Source: a virus (taxonomy: Duplodnaviria > Heunggongvirae > Uroviricota > Caudoviricetes). Taken from it: DNA of 4,917 nucleotides. The notes under the pieces were generated by a model. That model ran no database searches. It had not been told where the DNA came from and worked only from the letters and a program-made list of their open reading frames with translations. The DNA is taken from the IMG/VR virus record IMGVR_UViG_2534682255_000020. One strand, written 5' to 3'. Made by a program: the position numbers and the translations under genes. This document shows, one piece after another, positions 1-4,917 of this stretch (position 1 is its first letter; each line of letters starts with the position of its first letter).

Positions 1-451
1 CGTTGTCGTAGCCGTCATGCAACACGCTCATGACATCGGACACGGTGACGATAATCACGCTTCTCCCCTTCGCCATCAGCCGATTGCCAATCGCTGCTGC
101 CAGGTGATTTTTACCGGTACCAGGTTTACCGCTGAACACGAAGTTTGTACATCCGGTCATCAATTCATCGGCAATGGATTTCGCCTGGCTCAGAGCATGG
201 CGCTGACCGTCGTTCTGCACCCGGTAGTTCCCGAATGAGCACTTCCTGTGAAGCGGCTGGATGCCCGCACGGTTCAGGATTTTTTCAACCCGCACCTGAT
301 GATTCAGGCGGTTAATCTCCTCGCTGCGTTTTCGTCCTTCAGCAAGTTGCCATTCCCGCCACTCCTCCACCGTCCGGTACGGTGGAACCGACGCCTGTGG
401 TGCAAGTCTGCGAATACGTTCAAGAACCCCGGCTGCCGCAATGTTTTTCAT
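1..451 (-). CDS. DnaC-like replicative helicase loader (AAA+), partial; C-terminus lies beyond the window start
   Basis: Minus-strand translation from ATG 451-449: MKNIAAAGVLERIRRLAPQASVPPYRTVEEWREWQLAEGRKRSEEINRLNHQVRVEKILNRAGIQPLHRKCSFGNYRVQNDGQRHALSQAKSIADELMTGCTNFVFSGKPGTGKNHLAAAIGNRLMAKGRSVIIVTVSDVMSVLHDGYDN. Walker A GKPGTGKNHLAAAI and the CSFxNYRV motif closely match my recollection of E. coli DnaC. A GGGGGTG SD-like sequence sits 7 nt upstream of the ATG. The gene lies 6 nt downstream of the replication initiator stop, the O-P-like arrangement. Not in the ORF track because no stop falls inside the window. Confidence 0.9.
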   Translation of the reverse strand, partial: MKNIAAAGVLERIRRLAPQASVPPYRTVEEWREWQLAEGRKRSEEINRLNHQVRVEKILNRAGIQPLHRKCSFGNYRVQNDGQRHALSQAKSIADELMTGCTNFVFSGKPGTGKNHLAAAIGNRLMAKGRSVIIVTVSDVMSVLHDGYDN

Positions 452-457
452 GCCACA

Positions 458-1549
458 TCACCCCCTGAATCCCGGCGGAATTTCGGTATCCGGTTCAGAA
501 ATATGATTCACACAACGCTGGTTGTTCGTGCCGCTTACCGGGAGCAACCAGGGGTTTTCAAAATTCCGGTCCGGCCCAAAAAACGTCGTCGCTCGCTGAA
601 CAAATTCCGTTCCCGCTTTCCCGGTCGCCGCCAGGTATCTCGCGTAACGCCTCACACCATCCAGCATGGTCTCTGGTGGCACCCCCTCGCGCAATCTGGC
701 CTTCCAGGCACTGAAAGCGGATTTCTTCGGGTTTGCCCCAGCACGCAACGGGTATTCCCGCCAGACCTGTTCGAACACATCCGGATAATCCACTCGTCCC
801 ACAGACTGCCCGGTGCTTTCCGGGACTACCCGATCGGCTTCCCGCTGAATGGCGGAATCGGCTTCAGGCTGCTGCAGTTGGTGTGATTGCTCCGACCCTG
901 CGGTCATCACCTGCTGCACAGCGCCCGAATCGGCTTCCGGTGTCGTGCCTGCTGGCTGACCAGGATTGACGGTCTGAACATCCCCTGCCTGGTTCGTGGT
1001 GTTTTTTTTGCCATGAACCATAGTGTTTTTGTCCTGTTCCTGTTCTTTCTCCTGCTCCTGTTCCTGTTCTTGGCTTCGAAGCCCCTTAAAAGCCCCTTCG
1101 AAGCCCCTTACCGAATTTCGGCTATTATTCCGCCTCACATCCAGATGGAAATCCGTTTTATATCTGTCGTAAAACACTGACAGAAAAGCGTTTTCAGGTA
1201 ATGATGCATACTCATTCCTGACACCTGCACAACGGTTATCGCCAGGCTTCAACGTTTCCCCAACCTGCCAGGCTGCCATTTCATGGACCCAGACCATCTC
1301 TGCATCATGGTCATAGCTACAAAAACCAGCTTCAACAGCCCTTTTAAGCCCCTTTGAAGCCCCTTCCAGACCAAGCCCGGTTTCATGAGCAAGGTATAAA
1401 ACTGGCAGGTAATACAAACCCAGCATATTTGCGTGAGGGGATGTCATCAGGTAAAAAGCAACAACTTGCGCTTCTGCACCCGCCTTTCTAAGTTCTCTCC
1501 CCGTTTCTCCCAGCCAGAATCGCGGAGAAACTTTTGCGTAATCACGCAT
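458..1549 (-). CDS. Phage replication initiation protein: YdaU/DUF1376-like N-domain, EQ-repeat linker, DnaT-like C-terminal domain
   Basis: ORF 458-1660 in the track; I place the start at the internal ATG 1549-1547 (MRDYAKVSPRFWLGETGRELR...), which has a GAGG SD 5 nt upstream, whereas the ATG at 1660 has none. The N-terminal region (SPRFWLGETG...AFYLMTSPHANMLGLYYLP) resembles the YdaU/DUF1376 family. The C-terminus ends ...CVNHISEPDTEIPPGFRG, close to the C-terminal tail of E. coli DnaT as I recall it (...VNTVSEPDSQIPPGFRG). Position immediately upstream of the DnaC-like gene. Confidence 0.8.
   Translation of the reverse strand: MRDYAKVSPRFWLGETGRELRKAGAEAQVVAFYLMTSPHANMLGLYYLPVLYLAHETGLGLEGASKGLKRAVEAGFCSYDHDAEMVWVHEMAAWQVGETLKPGDNRCAGVRNEYASLPENAFLSVFYDRYKTDFHLDVRRNNSRNSVRGFEGAFKGLRSQEQEQEQEKEQEQDKNTMVHGKKNTTNQAGDVQTVNPGQPAGTTPEADSGAVQQVMTAGSEQSHQLQQPEADSAIQREADRVVPESTGQSVGRVDYPDVFEQVWREYPLRAGANPKKSAFSAWKARLREGVPPETMLDGVRRYARYLAATGKAGTEFVQRATTFFGPDRNFENPWLLPVSGTNNQRCVNHISEPDTEIPPGFRG
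1034..1072 (-). repeat. In-frame CTG/TTC-type trinucleotide repeat encoding a QEQEQEQEKEQEQ low-complexity linker in the replication protein
   Basis: Plus-strand ctgttcctgttctttctcctgctcctgttcctgttcttg; minus-strand translation gives QEQEQEQEKEQEQ between the N- and C-terminal domains. Confidence 0.8.
1079..1109. repeat. Three tandem 11-bp iterons (CGAAGCCCCTT / AAAAGCCCCTT / CGAAGCCCCTT); candidate origin iterons inside the rep gene
   Basis: AAGCCCCTT at 1079-1087, 1090-1098 and 1101-1109, an exact 11-bp period, directly abutting the EQ linker and followed by a more AT-rich stretch (about 1111-1200). Confidence 0.55.
1337..1367. repeat. Second cluster of the same 11-bp iteron (CAGCCCTTTT / AAGCCCCTTT / GAAGCCCCTTC)
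   Basis: AAGCCCCTT at 1346-1354 and 1357-1365 with a degenerate copy at 1337-1345; same orientation and 11-bp period as the 1079-1109 cluster. Confidence 0.5.
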
Positions 1550-1766
1550 GGCTACCTCATCTGGTGCCGAACCTTCCTCCGGATATAATCTGTGGTTCCC
1601 AATCGACAGAACCAGAGGAGGTTCGACATGTATTTTTTGAAAAGCCTTTATCAGGCTCATGTATTAAATGTTGCAGCAACAAACCGCTGGTGTAACAGCC
1701 CCGAAATGCTCCCGGATTACAGAGCCTGGCTGCGCGCCGAAACATACCTTCGTCTCGACATATTGA

Positions 1767-2276
1767 TTAGCGAACTTCAAAAAGAGACTGCATCCATTCA
1801 TAACCTTCAGGGTATCGACGCTGTTCGCATTCTGGTATCGCGCCATAGTGCTCTCTCAATAATTGAAGTGCGTCATCTCTCTTTTTCTGAACTGATTTTC
1901 TTGCTTCAACCAGCTCTGGAATCAGCGAATATCCCGCCGGAAGTGATCCAATACCCACCTCATGTTGACGAGCAGTTACAAGATGTGCCATACAACCAGC
2001 GTGCTGGATTGACTCCCTGCTCAGAGGCTGAATGGGATCACTCTCTGCTGAAGAAATACCAAGATTTGTATAATCCTCAATAAGCCCGGCACACGCTTCT
2101 GCATCAGCCAGCTTTATTCTGGTTTCCTTGCGCTGTTCTCTGGCTGACAAACGCCAGAGCAGCGCATTAGCTTTATGTATCAACCACTCTGCCAGCTCCA
2201 CATCAGATAAACCGCCACGCCAGATGTGCGGACTGTTTTCGTAAACGCTCAGTGTCAATTTTTTGTCATTACTCAT
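1767..2276 (-). CDS. Hypothetical protein (169 aa) between the CII-like gene and the replication gene
   Basis: ORF 1767-2327 in the track; I prefer the start at ATG 2276-2274 (MSNDKKLTLSVYENSPHIWRGG...), 13 nt after the YdaT-like stop, which avoids a 38-nt overlap with that gene. The SD is weak (GGGT). On the 110 codons I tallied, first-position G is about 36% (coding-like), while the antisense plus ORF is first-position C-rich over the overlap, as expected for a shadow frame. No family recognised. Confidence 0.55.
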   Translation of the reverse strand: MSNDKKLTLSVYENSPHIWRGGLSDVELAEWLIHKANALLWRLSAREQRKETRIKLADAEACAGLIEDYTNLGISSAESDPIQPLSRESIQHAGCMAHLVTARQHEVGIGSLPAGYSLIPELVEARKSVQKKRDDALQLLREHYGAIPECEQRRYPEGYEWMQSLFEVR

Positions 2277-2289
2277 ATTTATTACCCAA

Positions 2290-2715
2290 TTAATGCACAG
2301 CCAGAGTGTTTCCTGCCGGGCCACCACGATTCATCTGATCGAACAGAACGATCGCTGATGCAACGAAATCATCAATATCTTTCACCAGCCGTTCCTTCGT
2401 CTCTACCAACTCCCGAAAATAAGCGGAACTGTGGCTGCGCATTCGGGCCACCAGCGGAGGCGGCATCGCTTTTTCGATCGCTGGTAACAACGCCTGAATT
2501 TTTTTAACCGCATCAGGAGTGTCTTTCTCCACCCAGCGGAAAATTTTCTGAGTATTGCGAGCCATGGCTTCCGGATGGCTGTCGTCATACAGTTCCGGGA
2601 ACGTCATTCCCAGCTCGAAATACGCTTTGGTAATTTTCGCAGCCGGTACTTTTTCGCCGTCCGGATGCGCCCAGACATTCATCGCCATGCGGATGTGTTC
2701 ATGCTTGATTTTCAT
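2290..2715 (-). CDS. ydaT: YdaT-family protein (CII-like early regulator, sometimes annotated as toxin YdaT)
   Basis: 141-aa ORF beginning MKIKHEHI..., matching the N-terminus and length (about 140 aa) of Rac prophage YdaT as I recall it. Its ATG overlaps the stop of the upstream Cro-like gene (ATGA at 2715-2712). Confidence 0.8.
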   Translation of the reverse strand: MKIKHEHIRMAMNVWAHPDGEKVPAAKITKAYFELGMTFPELYDDSHPEAMARNTQKIFRWVEKDTPDAVKKIQALLPAIEKAMPPPLVARMRSHSSAYFRELVETKERLVKDIDDFVASAIVLFDQMNRGGPAGNTLAVH

Positions 2716-3014
2716 GAATCAACTCCATCAGATAAGCATGCACTACAATCACCTTCAGCATGAACTACATGTGTTTGCCCCAAACGAATGCCGCTCGCAT
2801 ACTCAGGCCAAATAAGCTCCCAATCATGGGGTCGTAGCTCCGCCCTACTTACTTGGCCTTCCGTCGCAGATTCGATCATAAGGGCGCGGGTTGGAGATAT
2901 AGCTGTTCGTCCAGACGCCATTTGCGATAAGTAAGATGGCGATACACCAAGTCTGGCCGCGAATTTCTTAGCATCACCAACCCTTAATGATTTAATAAAC
3001 TCTTTTAATGTCAT
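2712..3014 (-). CDS. ydaS: YdaS-family Cro-like HTH DNA-binding protein
   Basis: 100-aa ORF MTLKEFIKSLRVGDAKKFAARLGVSPSYLSQMASGRTAISPTRALMIESATEGQVSRAELRPHDW... with an HTH-like segment (AARLGVSPSYLSQMASGR). GAGGAAGG SD immediately upstream of ATG 3014-3012. First gene of the minus-strand operon, divergent from the regulator gene, as for cro. Confidence 0.8.
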   Translation of the reverse strand: MTLKEFIKSLRVGDAKKFAARLGVSPSYLSQMASGRTAISPTRALMIESATEGQVSRAELRPHDWELIWPEYASGIRLGQTHVVHAEGDCSACLSDGVDS

Positions 3015-3023
3015 ACCTTCCTC

Positions 3024-3090
3024 GGTTTAGTGTTTTTTTGCGAGTTTAGTGTTTAATAAACCATTAAGTCAAGTATTTGCTTGTTTAGTG
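3024..3090. promoter_or_regulatory. Operator-like direct repeats GTTTAGTG x3 in the divergent intergenic region
   Basis: GGTTTAGTGTTT 3024-3035, AGTTTAGTGTTT 3043-3054, TGTTTAGTGATT 3082-3093, arranged across the putative divergent promoters as in a lambdoid OR region. Confidence 0.5.
3043..3072 (-). promoter_or_regulatory. PR-like promoter for the ydaS-ydaT-rep-dnaC operon (-35 TTGACT, -10 TAAACT)
   Basis: On the minus strand: TTGACT (3072-3067), 18-nt spacer, TAAACT (3048-3043), followed by the leader and GAGGAAGG SD of the Cro-like gene. The -10 overlaps a GTTTAGTG operator-like repeat. Confidence 0.45.
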
Positions 3091-3105
3091 ATTACTAAAG
3101 ATAAT
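3077..3105 (+). promoter_or_regulatory. Candidate PRM-like promoter for the regulator gene (-10 GATAAT 3100-3105; weak -35 TTGCTT 3077-3082); possibly leaderless transcript
   Basis: GATAAT ends 6 nt before ATG 3112 and there is no SD upstream of that ATG, which would fit a leaderless mRNA as for lambda cI from PRM. The -35 is poor. Confidence 0.3.
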
Positions 3106-3111
3106 TACCAC

Positions 3112-3483
3112 ATGCAAAAAAAAGAAATTCGCCGTTTACGTCTCAAGGAGTGGTTTAAAGATAAAACTCTGCCACCCAAAGAGAAGAGCTACCTATCTCA
3201 ACTAATGAGTGGGAGAGCCTCGTTTGGAGAAAAGGCTGCCAGAAGAATAGAGCAAACATACGGGATGCCGGAAGGGTATCTGGATGCGGAATACGCAGAA
3301 CAACCGGGGGGTTCTCCACCACATGCAGGGTTAACGTCTAATCAACTGGAATTATTGCAGATTTTTTCAGCCTTCCCTGAGGATGAGCAACGCCAGATAA
3401 TCAGCGAGTTAAAGCAGAAAAAAGAATCAATGGAAGATCTCATAGCGAGATGGATTGCGGCGCAAAAATGCCGCCGCGCCTGA
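3112..3483 (+). CDS. paaR2: PaaR2-like transcriptional regulator (123 aa); first gene of the three-component TA operon and candidate prophage repressor
   Basis: ORF 3049-3483 (GTG start in the track); I prefer ATG 3112 (MQKKEIRRLRLKEWFKDKTL...). Contains an HTH-like segment (SYLSQLMSGRASFGEKAARRIEQTYGMPEGYLD). Lies directly upstream of the antitoxin and toxin genes, divergent from the Cro-like gene. Confidence 0.7.
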   Translation: MQKKEIRRLRLKEWFKDKTLPPKEKSYLSQLMSGRASFGEKAARRIEQTYGMPEGYLDAEYAEQPGGSPPHAGLTSNQLELLQIFSAFPEDEQRQIISELKQKKESMEDLIARWIAAQKCRRA

Positions 3484-3503
3484 GTTATAAAACCGGAGGA
3501 AAC

Positions 3504-3695
3504 ATGAATAGAGCCCTTTCACCAATGGTTTCTGAATTTGAAACCATTGAACAAGAAAACAGTTACAACGAATGGCTGCGTGCGAAAGTAGCAACGAGCC
3601 TTGCAGATCCGCGCCCAGCAATTCCCCATGACGAAGTTGAGCGCAGAATGGCAGAACGCTTTGCTAAGATGCGCAAGGAACGGAGCAAGCAGTAA
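3504..3695 (+). CDS. paaA2: PaaA2-type antitoxin (63 aa) of a ParE-family toxin
   Basis: MNRALSPMVSEFETIEQENSYNEWLRAKVATSLADPRPAIPHDEVERRMAERFAKMRKERSKQ; exactly 63 aa, charged and helix-prone, the length I recall for PaaA2. GGAGG SD 4 nt upstream of the ATG. Stop TAA 3693-3695 lies 1 nt before the toxin ATG. Confidence 0.8.
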   Translation: MNRALSPMVSEFETIEQENSYNEWLRAKVATSLADPRPAIPHDEVERRMAERFAKMRKERSKQ

Positions 3696-3696
3696 A

Positions 3697-3975
3697 ATGT
3701 TACCCGTGTTATGGCTTGAAAGCGCAGATACCGACCTAGATGATATAACTAGTTATATTGCTCGTTTCGACATAGATGCGGCTGAACGCTTATGGCAGCG
3801 ATTAAGGGGTTGTGTGCTGCCGTTATCCGAACATCCGTATTTATACCCACCAAGCGACAGAGTACCTGGCTTGCGTGAGATTGTAGCCCACCCTAACTAT
3901 ATAATTCTATACCGCGTAACAACATCAAGCGTTGAAGTAGTAAACGTGATCCACGCAAGACGCCAGTTTCCCTAA
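3697..3975 (+). CDS. parE2: ParE-family type II toxin (92 aa), ParE2-type
   Basis: MLPVLWLESADTDLDDITSYIARFDIDAAERLWQRLRGCVLPLSEHPYLYPPSDRVPGLREIVAHPNYIILYRVTTSSVEVVNVIHARRQFP; the C-terminal signature (GLREI...YRV...V.V.NVIHARR) is typical of RelE/ParE-fold toxins. Tightly coupled to the upstream antitoxin gene. Confidence 0.85.
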   Translation: MLPVLWLESADTDLDDITSYIARFDIDAAERLWQRLRGCVLPLSEHPYLYPPSDRVPGLREIVAHPNYIILYRVTTSSVEVVNVIHARRQFP

Positions 3976-3993
3976 CTTTCACTACCAATAGAA

Positions 3994-4040
3994 ACATAAC
4001 AACCGCAACGACTTTATCAAAAGCGTTGTGTTTGTTATGT
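3994..4040 (+). terminator. Imperfect 17-bp stem / 13-nt loop hairpin downstream of parE2 (candidate terminator of the TA operon)
   Basis: ACATAACAACCGCAACG (3994-4010) pairs with CGTTGTGTTTGTTATGT (4024-4040) with one mismatch and one G-U. It starts 19 nt after the parE2 stop. There is no U-tract immediately after the stem; a T-run lies at 4052-4057. Confidence 0.4.
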
Positions 4041-4045
4041 CCCGC

Positions 4046-4090
4046 GGTTTAGTTTTTACTTGACTTAAGTTTAATGTTTATTAAACTAAA
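4046..4090 (+). promoter_or_regulatory. PL-like outward promoter and operator module (GGTTTAGT repeat, -35 TTGACT 4060-4065, palindrome AGTTTAAT-gttt-ATTAAACT 4068-4087, -10 TAAACT 4082-4087)
   Basis: This segment is a near-identical inverted copy of the PR-like module at about 3043-3075 (shared TTTAGT, TTTAATAAAC, ATTAA and TTAAGTCAAGTA blocks). It contains a perfect 8-bp-arm palindrome. Confidence 0.45.
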
Positions 4091-4323
4091 AATACCAACC
4101 ACCCCGCCCCACAGAACGCAGGGAAATACTTCGAGTTACCCGGCAGTGGTCAGGGGTTAAGTAGCCAGCCCGAGGCGTATGAACATGACGGCAGGGTTCA
4201 ACTTTAATAACTATGCAGCAGTTTTTTGTTCCGCTACCCCGGCGTTAAGGGGAAACAGAGGGTTTCTCAGTGGGCGAAGTCAAACATCAGAATGGAAGGC
4301 ATCCCGGGATCGGCAAAGAAGCA

Positions 4324-4358
4324 GCAATGGCGCTTTATATTGACATCAGCGCCATTGC
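4324..4358 (-). terminator. Perfect 11-bp inverted repeat (GCAATGGCGCT - 13 nt - AGCGCCATTGC); candidate terminator of the zinc-ribbon gene or a protein-binding palindrome
   Basis: Stem 4324-4334 / 4348-4358, GC-rich, about 45 nt downstream of the minus-strand stop at 4405. On the minus-strand RNA it is followed by UGCUUCUUUGCCG, only moderately U-rich. Confidence 0.4.
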
Positions 4359-4404
4359 AGGACAGGTAAGAGTTATCAGAGCGGTAACTAAGCGGTATGC
4401 GCCT

Positions 4405-4605
4405 TTACTTCAGAAAGTCTCTGGTGAGTGCACCGAAGATATTGTCAACGATTTCGTCATCGAACTGCGAGGACTCATCTTCAGTTACAAGGTGACCACA
4501 ATTTTTGCAGATGGCTCCCGCGAAACTGTCAGAGCCCTGCGGCTTAAAGGATGTGTCAAAGACTTCGCCACCACATTCTGGGCAAGAAAACTTGATTGTA
4601 TTCAT
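4405..4605 (-). CDS. Small zinc-ribbon protein (66 aa; CPECGG ... CKNCGH), function unknown
   Basis: ORF 4405-4611 in the track (TTG start); I prefer ATG 4605-4603 (MNTIKFSCPECGGEVFDTSFKPQGSDSFAGAICKNCGHLVTEDESSQFDDEIVDNIFGALTRDFLK), preceded by a strong GAGAGGAA SD with a 7-nt spacer. Two CxxCG knuckles about 20 residues apart and an acidic C-terminal tail. First-position G is about 36% of codons. Confidence 0.6.
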   Translation of the reverse strand: MNTIKFSCPECGGEVFDTSFKPQGSDSFAGAICKNCGHLVTEDESSQFDDEIVDNIFGALTRDFLK

Positions 4606-4697
4606 AACCAATTTCCTCTCGAGTAACAGACCCCTCAGAGGATACCACCTCGCCTGACGTGGTTAAAAGCAGGCAACGCTAACCACAAGGAGCCGAC

Positions 4698-4916
4698 ATG
4701 CAGAAACGAGACCCCGTCATCATCGCGCCAGACTATACCGATGATGAACTTTATGAGTGGATGCACCAGAAAATTAATGCAGCGCAGGATCTGAAATGGG
4801 CCAATGAAGCCAGGGCTAAGCAGGCTGAAAATCTGTCCGCTCTGGAGCAGGATATCACCAATCTGGAAAAAGCAGCGGCATTAAGCATTGCCAGAATGAT
4901 TACATACCCGCGTTAA
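4698..4916 (+). CDS. Hypothetical protein (72 aa), likely first gene of the early-left-type operon
   Basis: ATG 4698 preceded by AAGGAG SD with a 5-nt spacer; MQKRDPVIIAPDYTDDELYEWMHQKINAAQDLKWANEARAKQAENLSALEQDITNLEKAAALSIARMITYPR; stop TAA 4914-4916. No family recognised. Confidence 0.5.
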   Translation: MQKRDPVIIAPDYTDDELYEWMHQKINAAQDLKWANEARAKQAENLSALEQDITNLEKAAALSIARMITYPR

Positions 4917-4917
4917 T

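Follow-up and report, generated by a model that had tools for sequence, protein, structure and literature searches.

The DNA analysed here, a 4,917-nucleotide stretch of the Caudoviricetes record IMGVR_UViG_2534682255_000020 (hereafter the window), carries a toxin-antitoxin (TA) operon of three genes at the place where phage lambda has cI, rexA and rexB. This position raises the question of whether the regulator encoded by the first gene serves the TA pair or the lysis-lysogeny switch, and whether the expression of toxin and antitoxin is bound to the lysogenic state. The locus very probably forms the immunity region of a lambdoid prophage of the CP-933P type, with PaaR2 as its repressor and paaA2-parE2 as a passenger, and no sequence evidence contradicting this explanation was found. 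The identities, anatomy, operators, promoters and synteny presented below were computed on the window, while binding, repression, leaderless translation, bistability and plasmid stabilisation are taken from the literature on the identical sequence.

Identity and layout of the three genes

A first, sequence-only reading described three tightly packed genes for proteins of 123, 63 and 92 residues, with a Shine-Dalgarno motif at 4 nt from the antitoxin start and a single nucleotide between the antitoxin stop and the toxin start, and the open reading frames and the raw sequence agree with it to the base (Table 1). In both of these, the Shine-Dalgarno of paaA2 is GGAGG (3495-3499), 4 nt before its ATG; paaR2 and paaA2 are separated by 20 nt, and base 3696 is the only one lying between the paaA2 stop codon and the parE2 ATG.

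ParE2 is 100% identical to PDB 5CW7_B across all 92 residues (E 7e-60) and matches the Pfam ParE_toxin model PF05016 (E 1.9e-16, 60.9 bits for a cutoff of 23). PaaA2 is identical to PDB 3ZBE at 62 of the 62 aligned residues (E 5.5e-37), is identical to the PaaA2 of 5CW7 as well, and matches the Pfam PaaA2 model PF21217 (E 1e-19, 70.7 bits for a cutoff of 27); no HTH or RHH family was matched by it in the Pfam scan. Residues 1-66 of PaaR2 are identical to PDB 7NKV and 8C3K (E 5e-41 for 7NKV), two entries whose molecule was named 'Phage repressor protein CI' by the depositors, and the protein matches PHROG 5736 'transcriptional regulator' (E 7e-39). Up to an E-value of 0.01 no Pfam model, Peptidase_S24 included, matched PaaR2, and Peptidase_S24 was not matched by any scanned protein of the window. 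Judging from these matches, the three genes are paaR2-paaA2-parE2, a three-component type II TA system, in the cI-rexAB slot of a lambdoid immunity region. The resemblance to this system, which the first reading had put forward, is upheld by the PDB identities, by the Pfam ParE_toxin and PaaA2 models and by DNA identity with E. coli O157:H7; comparison with PaaR2, PaaA2, ParE2 and Pfam ParE models, which had been proposed as a check, is significant for all three genes at the protein or DNA level. The TA system had been supposed to be probably not new, and the same locus has indeed been published in E. coli O157-type lambdoid prophages.

The operon is transcribed divergently from a Cro-like and a CII-like gene, as the same reading had it; the strands of the open reading frames, the Pfam matches to YdaS_toxin, HTH_3 and YdaT_toxin, and PHROG all concur. 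YdaS has the same protein sequence in the window as in O157:H7, and the ydaT product matches PDB 8BT1/3C4R with an E-value of about 1e-83. PaaR2 is CI-like in action, yet it stands outside the Lambda CI / LexA family, whose members combine an HTH with Peptidase_S24. The Pfam scan leaves it as the sole repressor-type gene of the immunity slot, in a window whose scanned proteins have no S24 match, which is what had been claimed for it.

Table 1. Positions of genes and regulatory features in the window and of two genes in a related Klebsiella phage
Feature	Position	Strand	Description
DnaC/IstB-like ATPase gene	1-451	-	
O-like replication initiator gene	458-1660	-	
ECs1072-family gene	1628-2083	+	NCBIfam NF033230, E 2e-30; RefSeq-annotated
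ydaT-type CII analogue	2290-2715	-	141 aa; Pfam YdaT_toxin; PHROG 163 'CII-like transcriptional activator'
OM, YdaT operator TTGATTTTCATGAATCAA	2705-2722	.	ydaS/ydaT junction
ydaS-type Cro analogue	2712-3014	-	100 aa; Pfam YdaS_toxin and HTH_3
OR operator cluster	3025-3100	.	97-bp paaR2-ydaS spacer; GTTTAGT-type half-sites at 3025, 3044 and 3083
PR933P-type promoter	3043-3072	-	-35 TTGACT 3072-3067, 18-nt spacer, -10 TAAACT 3048-3043; promoter scan
PRM933P-type promoter	3077-3112	+	-35 TTGCTT 3077-3082, 17-nt spacer, -10 GATAAT 3100-3105; putative hexamers, picked by eye
paaR2	3112-3483	+	123 aa; HTH repressor, CI analogue, no S24 peptidase domain
paaA2	3504-3695	+	63 aa; antitoxin lacking a DNA-binding domain; ATG 3504, stop TAA 3693-3695
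parE2	3697-3975	+	92 aa; ParE-family toxin; ATG 3697
Hairpin, inverted repeat I2	3994-4040	+	22-bp arms; between parE2 stop and OL
OL/PL933P	4047-4090	+	-35 TTGACT 4060-4065, 16-nt spacer, -10 TAAACT 4082-4087; second operator cluster
CxxC...CxxC zinc-ribbon gene	4408-4608	-	NCBIfam ECs_2282 family; just downstream of PL and antisense to it
YdaS-like Cro, Klebsiella phage 5 LV-2017	2641-2904 of extracted piece	-	
PaaR2 homologue, Klebsiella phage 5 LV-2017	3001-3357 of extracted piece (immunity region 2641-3897)		Unannotated

Operators, promoters and the switch

The exact heptamer GTTTAGT is present four times in the window for 0.42 expected, three times in the spacer separating paaR2 from ydaS and once at 70 bp past parE2. 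The consensus GTTTAGTAA, published for the four evenly spaced 18-bp inverted repeats of this 97-bp spacer (Jurenas et al. 2021), has seven matches in the window when at most one mismatch is allowed, and all seven fall within 2992-3100 or 4076-4086. Palindromes of 18 bp occupy 3044-3061 and 3083-3100 in OR and 4069-4086 in OL, and the repeat families D1 and D2 span the sites of both clusters. A consensus scan finds the same hexamers, TTGACT and TAAACT, in PR, which serves ydaS-ydaT-O-P, and in PL. The -10 hexamer of PRM ends seven bases before the A of the paaR2 ATG and no Shine-Dalgarno precedes this ATG in the sequence; this absence, together with the spacing of TTGCTT and GATAAT, fits a weak promoter and a leaderless paaR2 mRNA. 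The YdaT operator motif TTGATTN6AATCAA has one match in the whole window, an exact one, at the junction of ydaS and ydaT.

The layout is that of a lambdoid immunity region, with a repressor gene divergent from cro- and cII-type genes, repeated operators lying over back-to-back promoters, and a second operator cluster with a PL-type promoter beyond the repressor operon. The hairpin that precedes OL folds at -24.8 kcal/mol (z -4.9; 0 of 200 shuffles fold as well) and is not directly followed by a contiguous U-tract; it probably forms the 3' end or terminator of the PRM operon, or an RNA-stability element. An Rfam scan up to an E-value of 1 gave a single match, a miRNA at chance level, on this same hairpin.

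The regulatory behaviour of the sequence has been established in prophage CP-933P by 5' RACE, EMSA, footprinting and reporter (gfp) fusions, in experiments that used plasmid reporters and a prophage that is cryptic (Jurenas et al. 2021, mBio, PMC8630535). In that study PaaR2 is the CI analogue, YdaS the Cro analogue and YdaT the CII analogue. Transcription from PRM933P starts at the paaR2 start codon according to 5' RACE, and the N-terminal sequence of the protein, MQKKE, confirmed that translation is leaderless. The footprints of PaaR2 and YdaS overlap in the spacer, and PR933P, PRM933P and PL933P are all repressed by both proteins, PRM933P being activated by low and repressed by high PaaR2 levels. 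PL933P, whose -35 and -10 elements are identical to those of PR933P, possesses three operators; its repression by PaaR2 or YdaS is about 100-fold, and PRE933P is activated by YdaT. The locus is bistable and its state is heritable; PaaR2 has no motif for S24 autocleavage or RecA cleavage, and the prophage does not respond to mitomycin C (Jurenas et al. 2021). The structure of YdaT was solved and its operator, TTGATTN6AATCAA, defined by footprinting in a further study that places paaA2-parE2 in the stead of rexA-rexB and PaaR2 in that of CI (Prolic-Kalinsek et al. 2023, PMC9986795).

Two expectations had been attached to the regulator before these comparisons were made. Repression of the divergent ydaS-type promoter was to be examined by reporter fusions and EMSA; since both are already part of the published work, the proposed tests have been done, and they gave the predicted result (Jurenas et al. 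2021). The idea that toxin and antitoxin expression is tied to the lysogenic state fares less well: expression is modulated by the state of the switch, but it is not confined to one of them, as a reporter placed downstream of parE2 is appreciably expressed in both the RAE2-on and the ydaST-on states (Jurenas et al. 2021), and the TA pair is consequently not strictly tied to lysogeny. The locus, the structures and the regulatory logic are already known; the finding is correct and it is not new.

Combining the published behaviour with the anatomy of the window, the preferred explanation runs as follows. PaaR2 would be a short HTH repressor devoid of S24 autocleavage, with a DicA-like C-terminal part for oligomerisation, and its leaderless mRNA would begin at the paaR2 ATG. 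Bound to the GTTTAGT-type operators of OR and OL, it would keep PR, and with it ydaS, ydaT and the replication genes, as well as PL, switched off, while its own weak promoter PRM would be stimulated by low and repressed by high amounts of PaaR2. YdaS would compete with PaaR2 for the operators and create a bistable switch. YdaT, which differs in the window at 19 of 141 residues from the studied protein, mostly in the C-terminal part, would act from its single operator on a PRE-type promoter reading into paaR2. The paaA2-parE2 pair would be a passenger cassette, transcribed together with the repressor gene that precedes it and standing where lambda has rexAB. Its labile antitoxin, which has no DNA-binding domain and would be degraded by ClpAP and ClpXP, would neutralise the ParE-fold toxin ParE2, so that a cell losing the cassette would be killed or arrested and the immunity region would be addictive. 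For protein sequences identical to those of the window, the toxicity of ParE2, its neutralisation by PaaA2 and the Clp-dependent turnover of PaaA2 have been published (Jurenas et al. 2021).

Related immunity regions and rival readings

The likeness to lambda lies in the architecture and does not extend to sequence homology. In both, the repressor gene is leaderless and is followed by passenger genes, PR and PRM diverge over common operators, OL/PL lies at a distance, and a CII-type activator works on a PRE-type promoter. Lambda has three operators where four evenly spaced 18-bp repeats are found here, and its rexAB passengers are replaced by a TA pair; PaaR2 has no S24 peptidase domain and hence would not undergo RecA-mediated induction. 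A further parallel is offered by DicA/DicC of Qin and RacR/YdaS/YdaT of Rac in E. coli K-12, where short HTH repressors without S24 occupy the cI position opposite Cro-like genes and, in Rac, opposite a YdaT-type gene as well. Qin and Rac share the flanking genes ydfC, dicB, exonuclease and integrase with prophages carrying the cassette, but have no paaA2-parE2 behind the repressor gene. The similarity of PaaR2 to DicA amounts to 27% identity in a tblastn comparison with dicA of Qin-like phages (E 4e-4) and to a match of residues 72-119, in the C-terminal part only, to the DicA model NCBIfam NF007257 (E 1.4e-6, 28.1 bits for a cutoff of 101), so that PaaR2 may be at most a distant relative of DicA.

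Klebsiella phage 5 LV-2017 (KY271399) encodes a PaaR2 homologue with 45% identity across 118 residues, a divergent YdaS-like Cro, a CII-type gene, replication genes and, past the repressor gene, a minus-strand zinc-ribbon gene. It differs by the lack of paaA2-parE2: the zinc-ribbon gene comes directly after the repressor gene and no ParE2 homologue was found anywhere in the record. The region looks like this architecture in a TA-less form, which speaks for repression as the primary function and for the TA pair as an add-on, and gives comparative support to the idea of Jurenas et al. (2021) that a TA pair was inserted into a pre-existing immunity region; arrival of the TA genes by insertion is what we infer for the window.

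The same comparison bears on a different reading, in which PaaR2 would be the detached DNA-binding half of a split antitoxin, dedicated to the TA pair, and immunity would depend on another repressor. Canonical type II antitoxins carry a DNA-binding domain of their own and PaaA2 does not, the idea was raised by Jurenas et al. (2021), and PaaR2 was treated as the regulator of the TA pair when the three-component TA was first described (Hallez et al. 2010). But the PaaR2 homologue of the Klebsiella phage sits in the same cI slot and faces a YdaS-type Cro with no TA pair to serve, and the distant similarity of PaaR2 is to DicA, the repressor of the Qin prophage. A second operator cluster and promoter lie about 1 kb away beyond the TA genes, like lambda OL, no other repressor was found in the prophages examined, and PaaR2 has been shown to repress PR933P and PL933P (Jurenas et al. 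2021). This reading is largely refuted and we regard it as extremely improbable. The role of the passenger pair is a separate matter. Prophage toxin-antitoxin pairs are often defence genes. The paaA2-parE2 pair might constitute a RexAB-like module for superinfection exclusion or abortive infection, instead of or besides addiction; its position is exactly that of lambda rexAB and it is co-transcribed with the repressor gene (Prolic-Kalinsek et al. 2023). Against this, neither PaaR2 nor PaaA2 nor ParE2 matched any family of the PADLOC defence models, toxin activity was detected in neither state of the switch, and the only demonstrated phenotype is post-segregational killing with plasmid stabilisation, the ydaST-RAE2 region as a whole stabilising a mini-F plasmid (Jurenas et al. 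2021). A Rex-like function seems unlikely to us, and the pair is best described as the passenger of a PaaR2-repressed immunity region.

Distribution, mosaic structure and neighbouring genes

The segment 3015-4100 is 100% identical at the DNA level to the same locus in CP-933P (Sp12) and in hundreds of E. coli O157:H7 genomes. It was found in 633 of 5,426 complete E. coli genomes, and in 572 of these 633 at 99% identity or more. CP-933P/Sp12 shares with the window an identical YdaS, three TA proteins identical wherever they can be compared, the operators, PR, PRM, PL and the YdaT site. Neither in the phage collection nor in the 5,426 complete E. coli genomes does any record cover more than 82% of the whole window; the element is therefore a mosaic rather than CP-933P itself, which leaves the assignment untouched because its cassette is identical. 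The difference resides in the left backbone. From 2566 to 4917, that is from the N-terminal part of ydaT to ydfC, the 2.35 kb of the window depart from the CP-933P-type prophage of O157:H7 TR01 by one SNP (4712) and a 1-nt indel near 4099. Just to the left, 2293-2565 contains 53 SNPs (about 19% divergence), which are all the DNA differences of ydaT and lie in its C-terminal two thirds, and 521-2289 is unrelated. The residues by which YdaT differs from the O157 copy all fall within residues 51-141. Near-identity on one side of 2566 and divergent, then unrelated DNA on the other place a recombination junction inside ydaT. By alignment, the cassette of the window is joined to a different O gene, unrelated in sequence to the O-type replication gene of CP-933P, and to an extra ECs1072-family gene; the latter is present in strain TK3046 and absent from the O157:H7 CP-933P-type prophage.

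At least three distinct prophage or phage backbones carry the cassette, which is found at two integration sites. In TK3046 it resides in a different, nearly complete HK97-like prophage at the tRNA-Ser/mtfA site, and it is also carried by the phage record Evi (LR597642). The plasmid collection gave one match, a 1.4-Mb record of evidently chromosomal-type DNA, from which it follows that the cassette is not a plasmid module. In the Evi record, for which a single citing paper, on CRISPR targets, was found, parE2 is unannotated (24917-25192 of the record; 5546-5824 of the extracted piece; 100% protein identity) and the adjacent paaA2 is labelled 'hypothetical protein'.

A separate canonical CI elsewhere in the same prophage had been named as the observation that would overturn the assignment of PaaR2, and none came to light: the two annotated prophages bearing the cassette, in O157:H7 TR01 and TK3046, contain no S24/LexA-type repressor. 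The TR01 prophage was followed from the tail-fibre genes to the integrase remnant and its immunity genes are ydaT, ydaS, paaR2, paaA2 and parE2 only. A LexA-family gene located 46 kb away in TR01 was considered as a second repressor and rejected: it is part of a separate prophage next door, where a Cro, a YdaT and integrase remnants of that prophage are also found. In the late region of the cassette-bearing TR01 prophage, a gene for a 'phage antirepressor N-terminal domain' protein (6695-7264 of the extracted piece) stands amid the lysis genes; it is a possible route to inactivate a repressor that is not cleavable through RecA.

The near-identity of the cassette in different backbones suggests a more speculative proposal. 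The immunity-plus-TA cassette could be a selfish, addictive recombination unit; if so, addiction to ParE2 would actively favour the retention and spread of one immunity type among lambdoid prophages, which goes past the published proposal that the TA pair stabilises one cryptic prophage. We hold this to be rather doubtful. As a discovery, the locus carries little weight given that both it and the proposed experiments were already published; it is a textbook-style case of a TA pair without autoregulation of its own, wired into a phage lysis-lysogeny switch. The mosaic junction inside ydaT and the TA-less Klebsiella homologue are the only aspects that are mildly new, and they represent ordinary lambdoid mosaicism unless the TA pair is shown to drive them. 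For the role of the TA pair in the protection or spread of immunity regions, a natural recombinant is available in the window and a comparator without the TA in the Klebsiella phage.

Several minor features surround the cassette. Beyond PL, in a region to which Jurenas et al. (2021) could assign no functions, we favour, by family match, the zinc-ribbon gene over the overlapping plus-strand frame 4270-4626 (118 aa), which is annotated in phage Evi and was disfavoured as the first PL gene because it matches no family; a zinc-ribbon homologue is likewise placed and oriented in Klebsiella phage 5 LV-2017 (3667-3897 of the extracted piece). On the other side, the ECs1072-family gene is flanked by the O-like gene and ydaT and runs antisense to the PR operon. 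The minus-strand frame 1767-2276 (169 aa), which overlaps it and has no Pfam or NCBIfam match, was rejected as a gene and is probably spurious. Inside the O-like gene, RAAGCCCCTT is repeated five times with an 11-bp spacing in two clusters, 1078-1109 and 1345-1365, adjoining a (TCCTGT)n tract that codes for a QEQEQE linker; with two mismatches allowed, its count over the whole window is not above chance. These copies may be iterons of an origin like those in lambda O, or the echo of repeated KGL/EGA peptide motifs.
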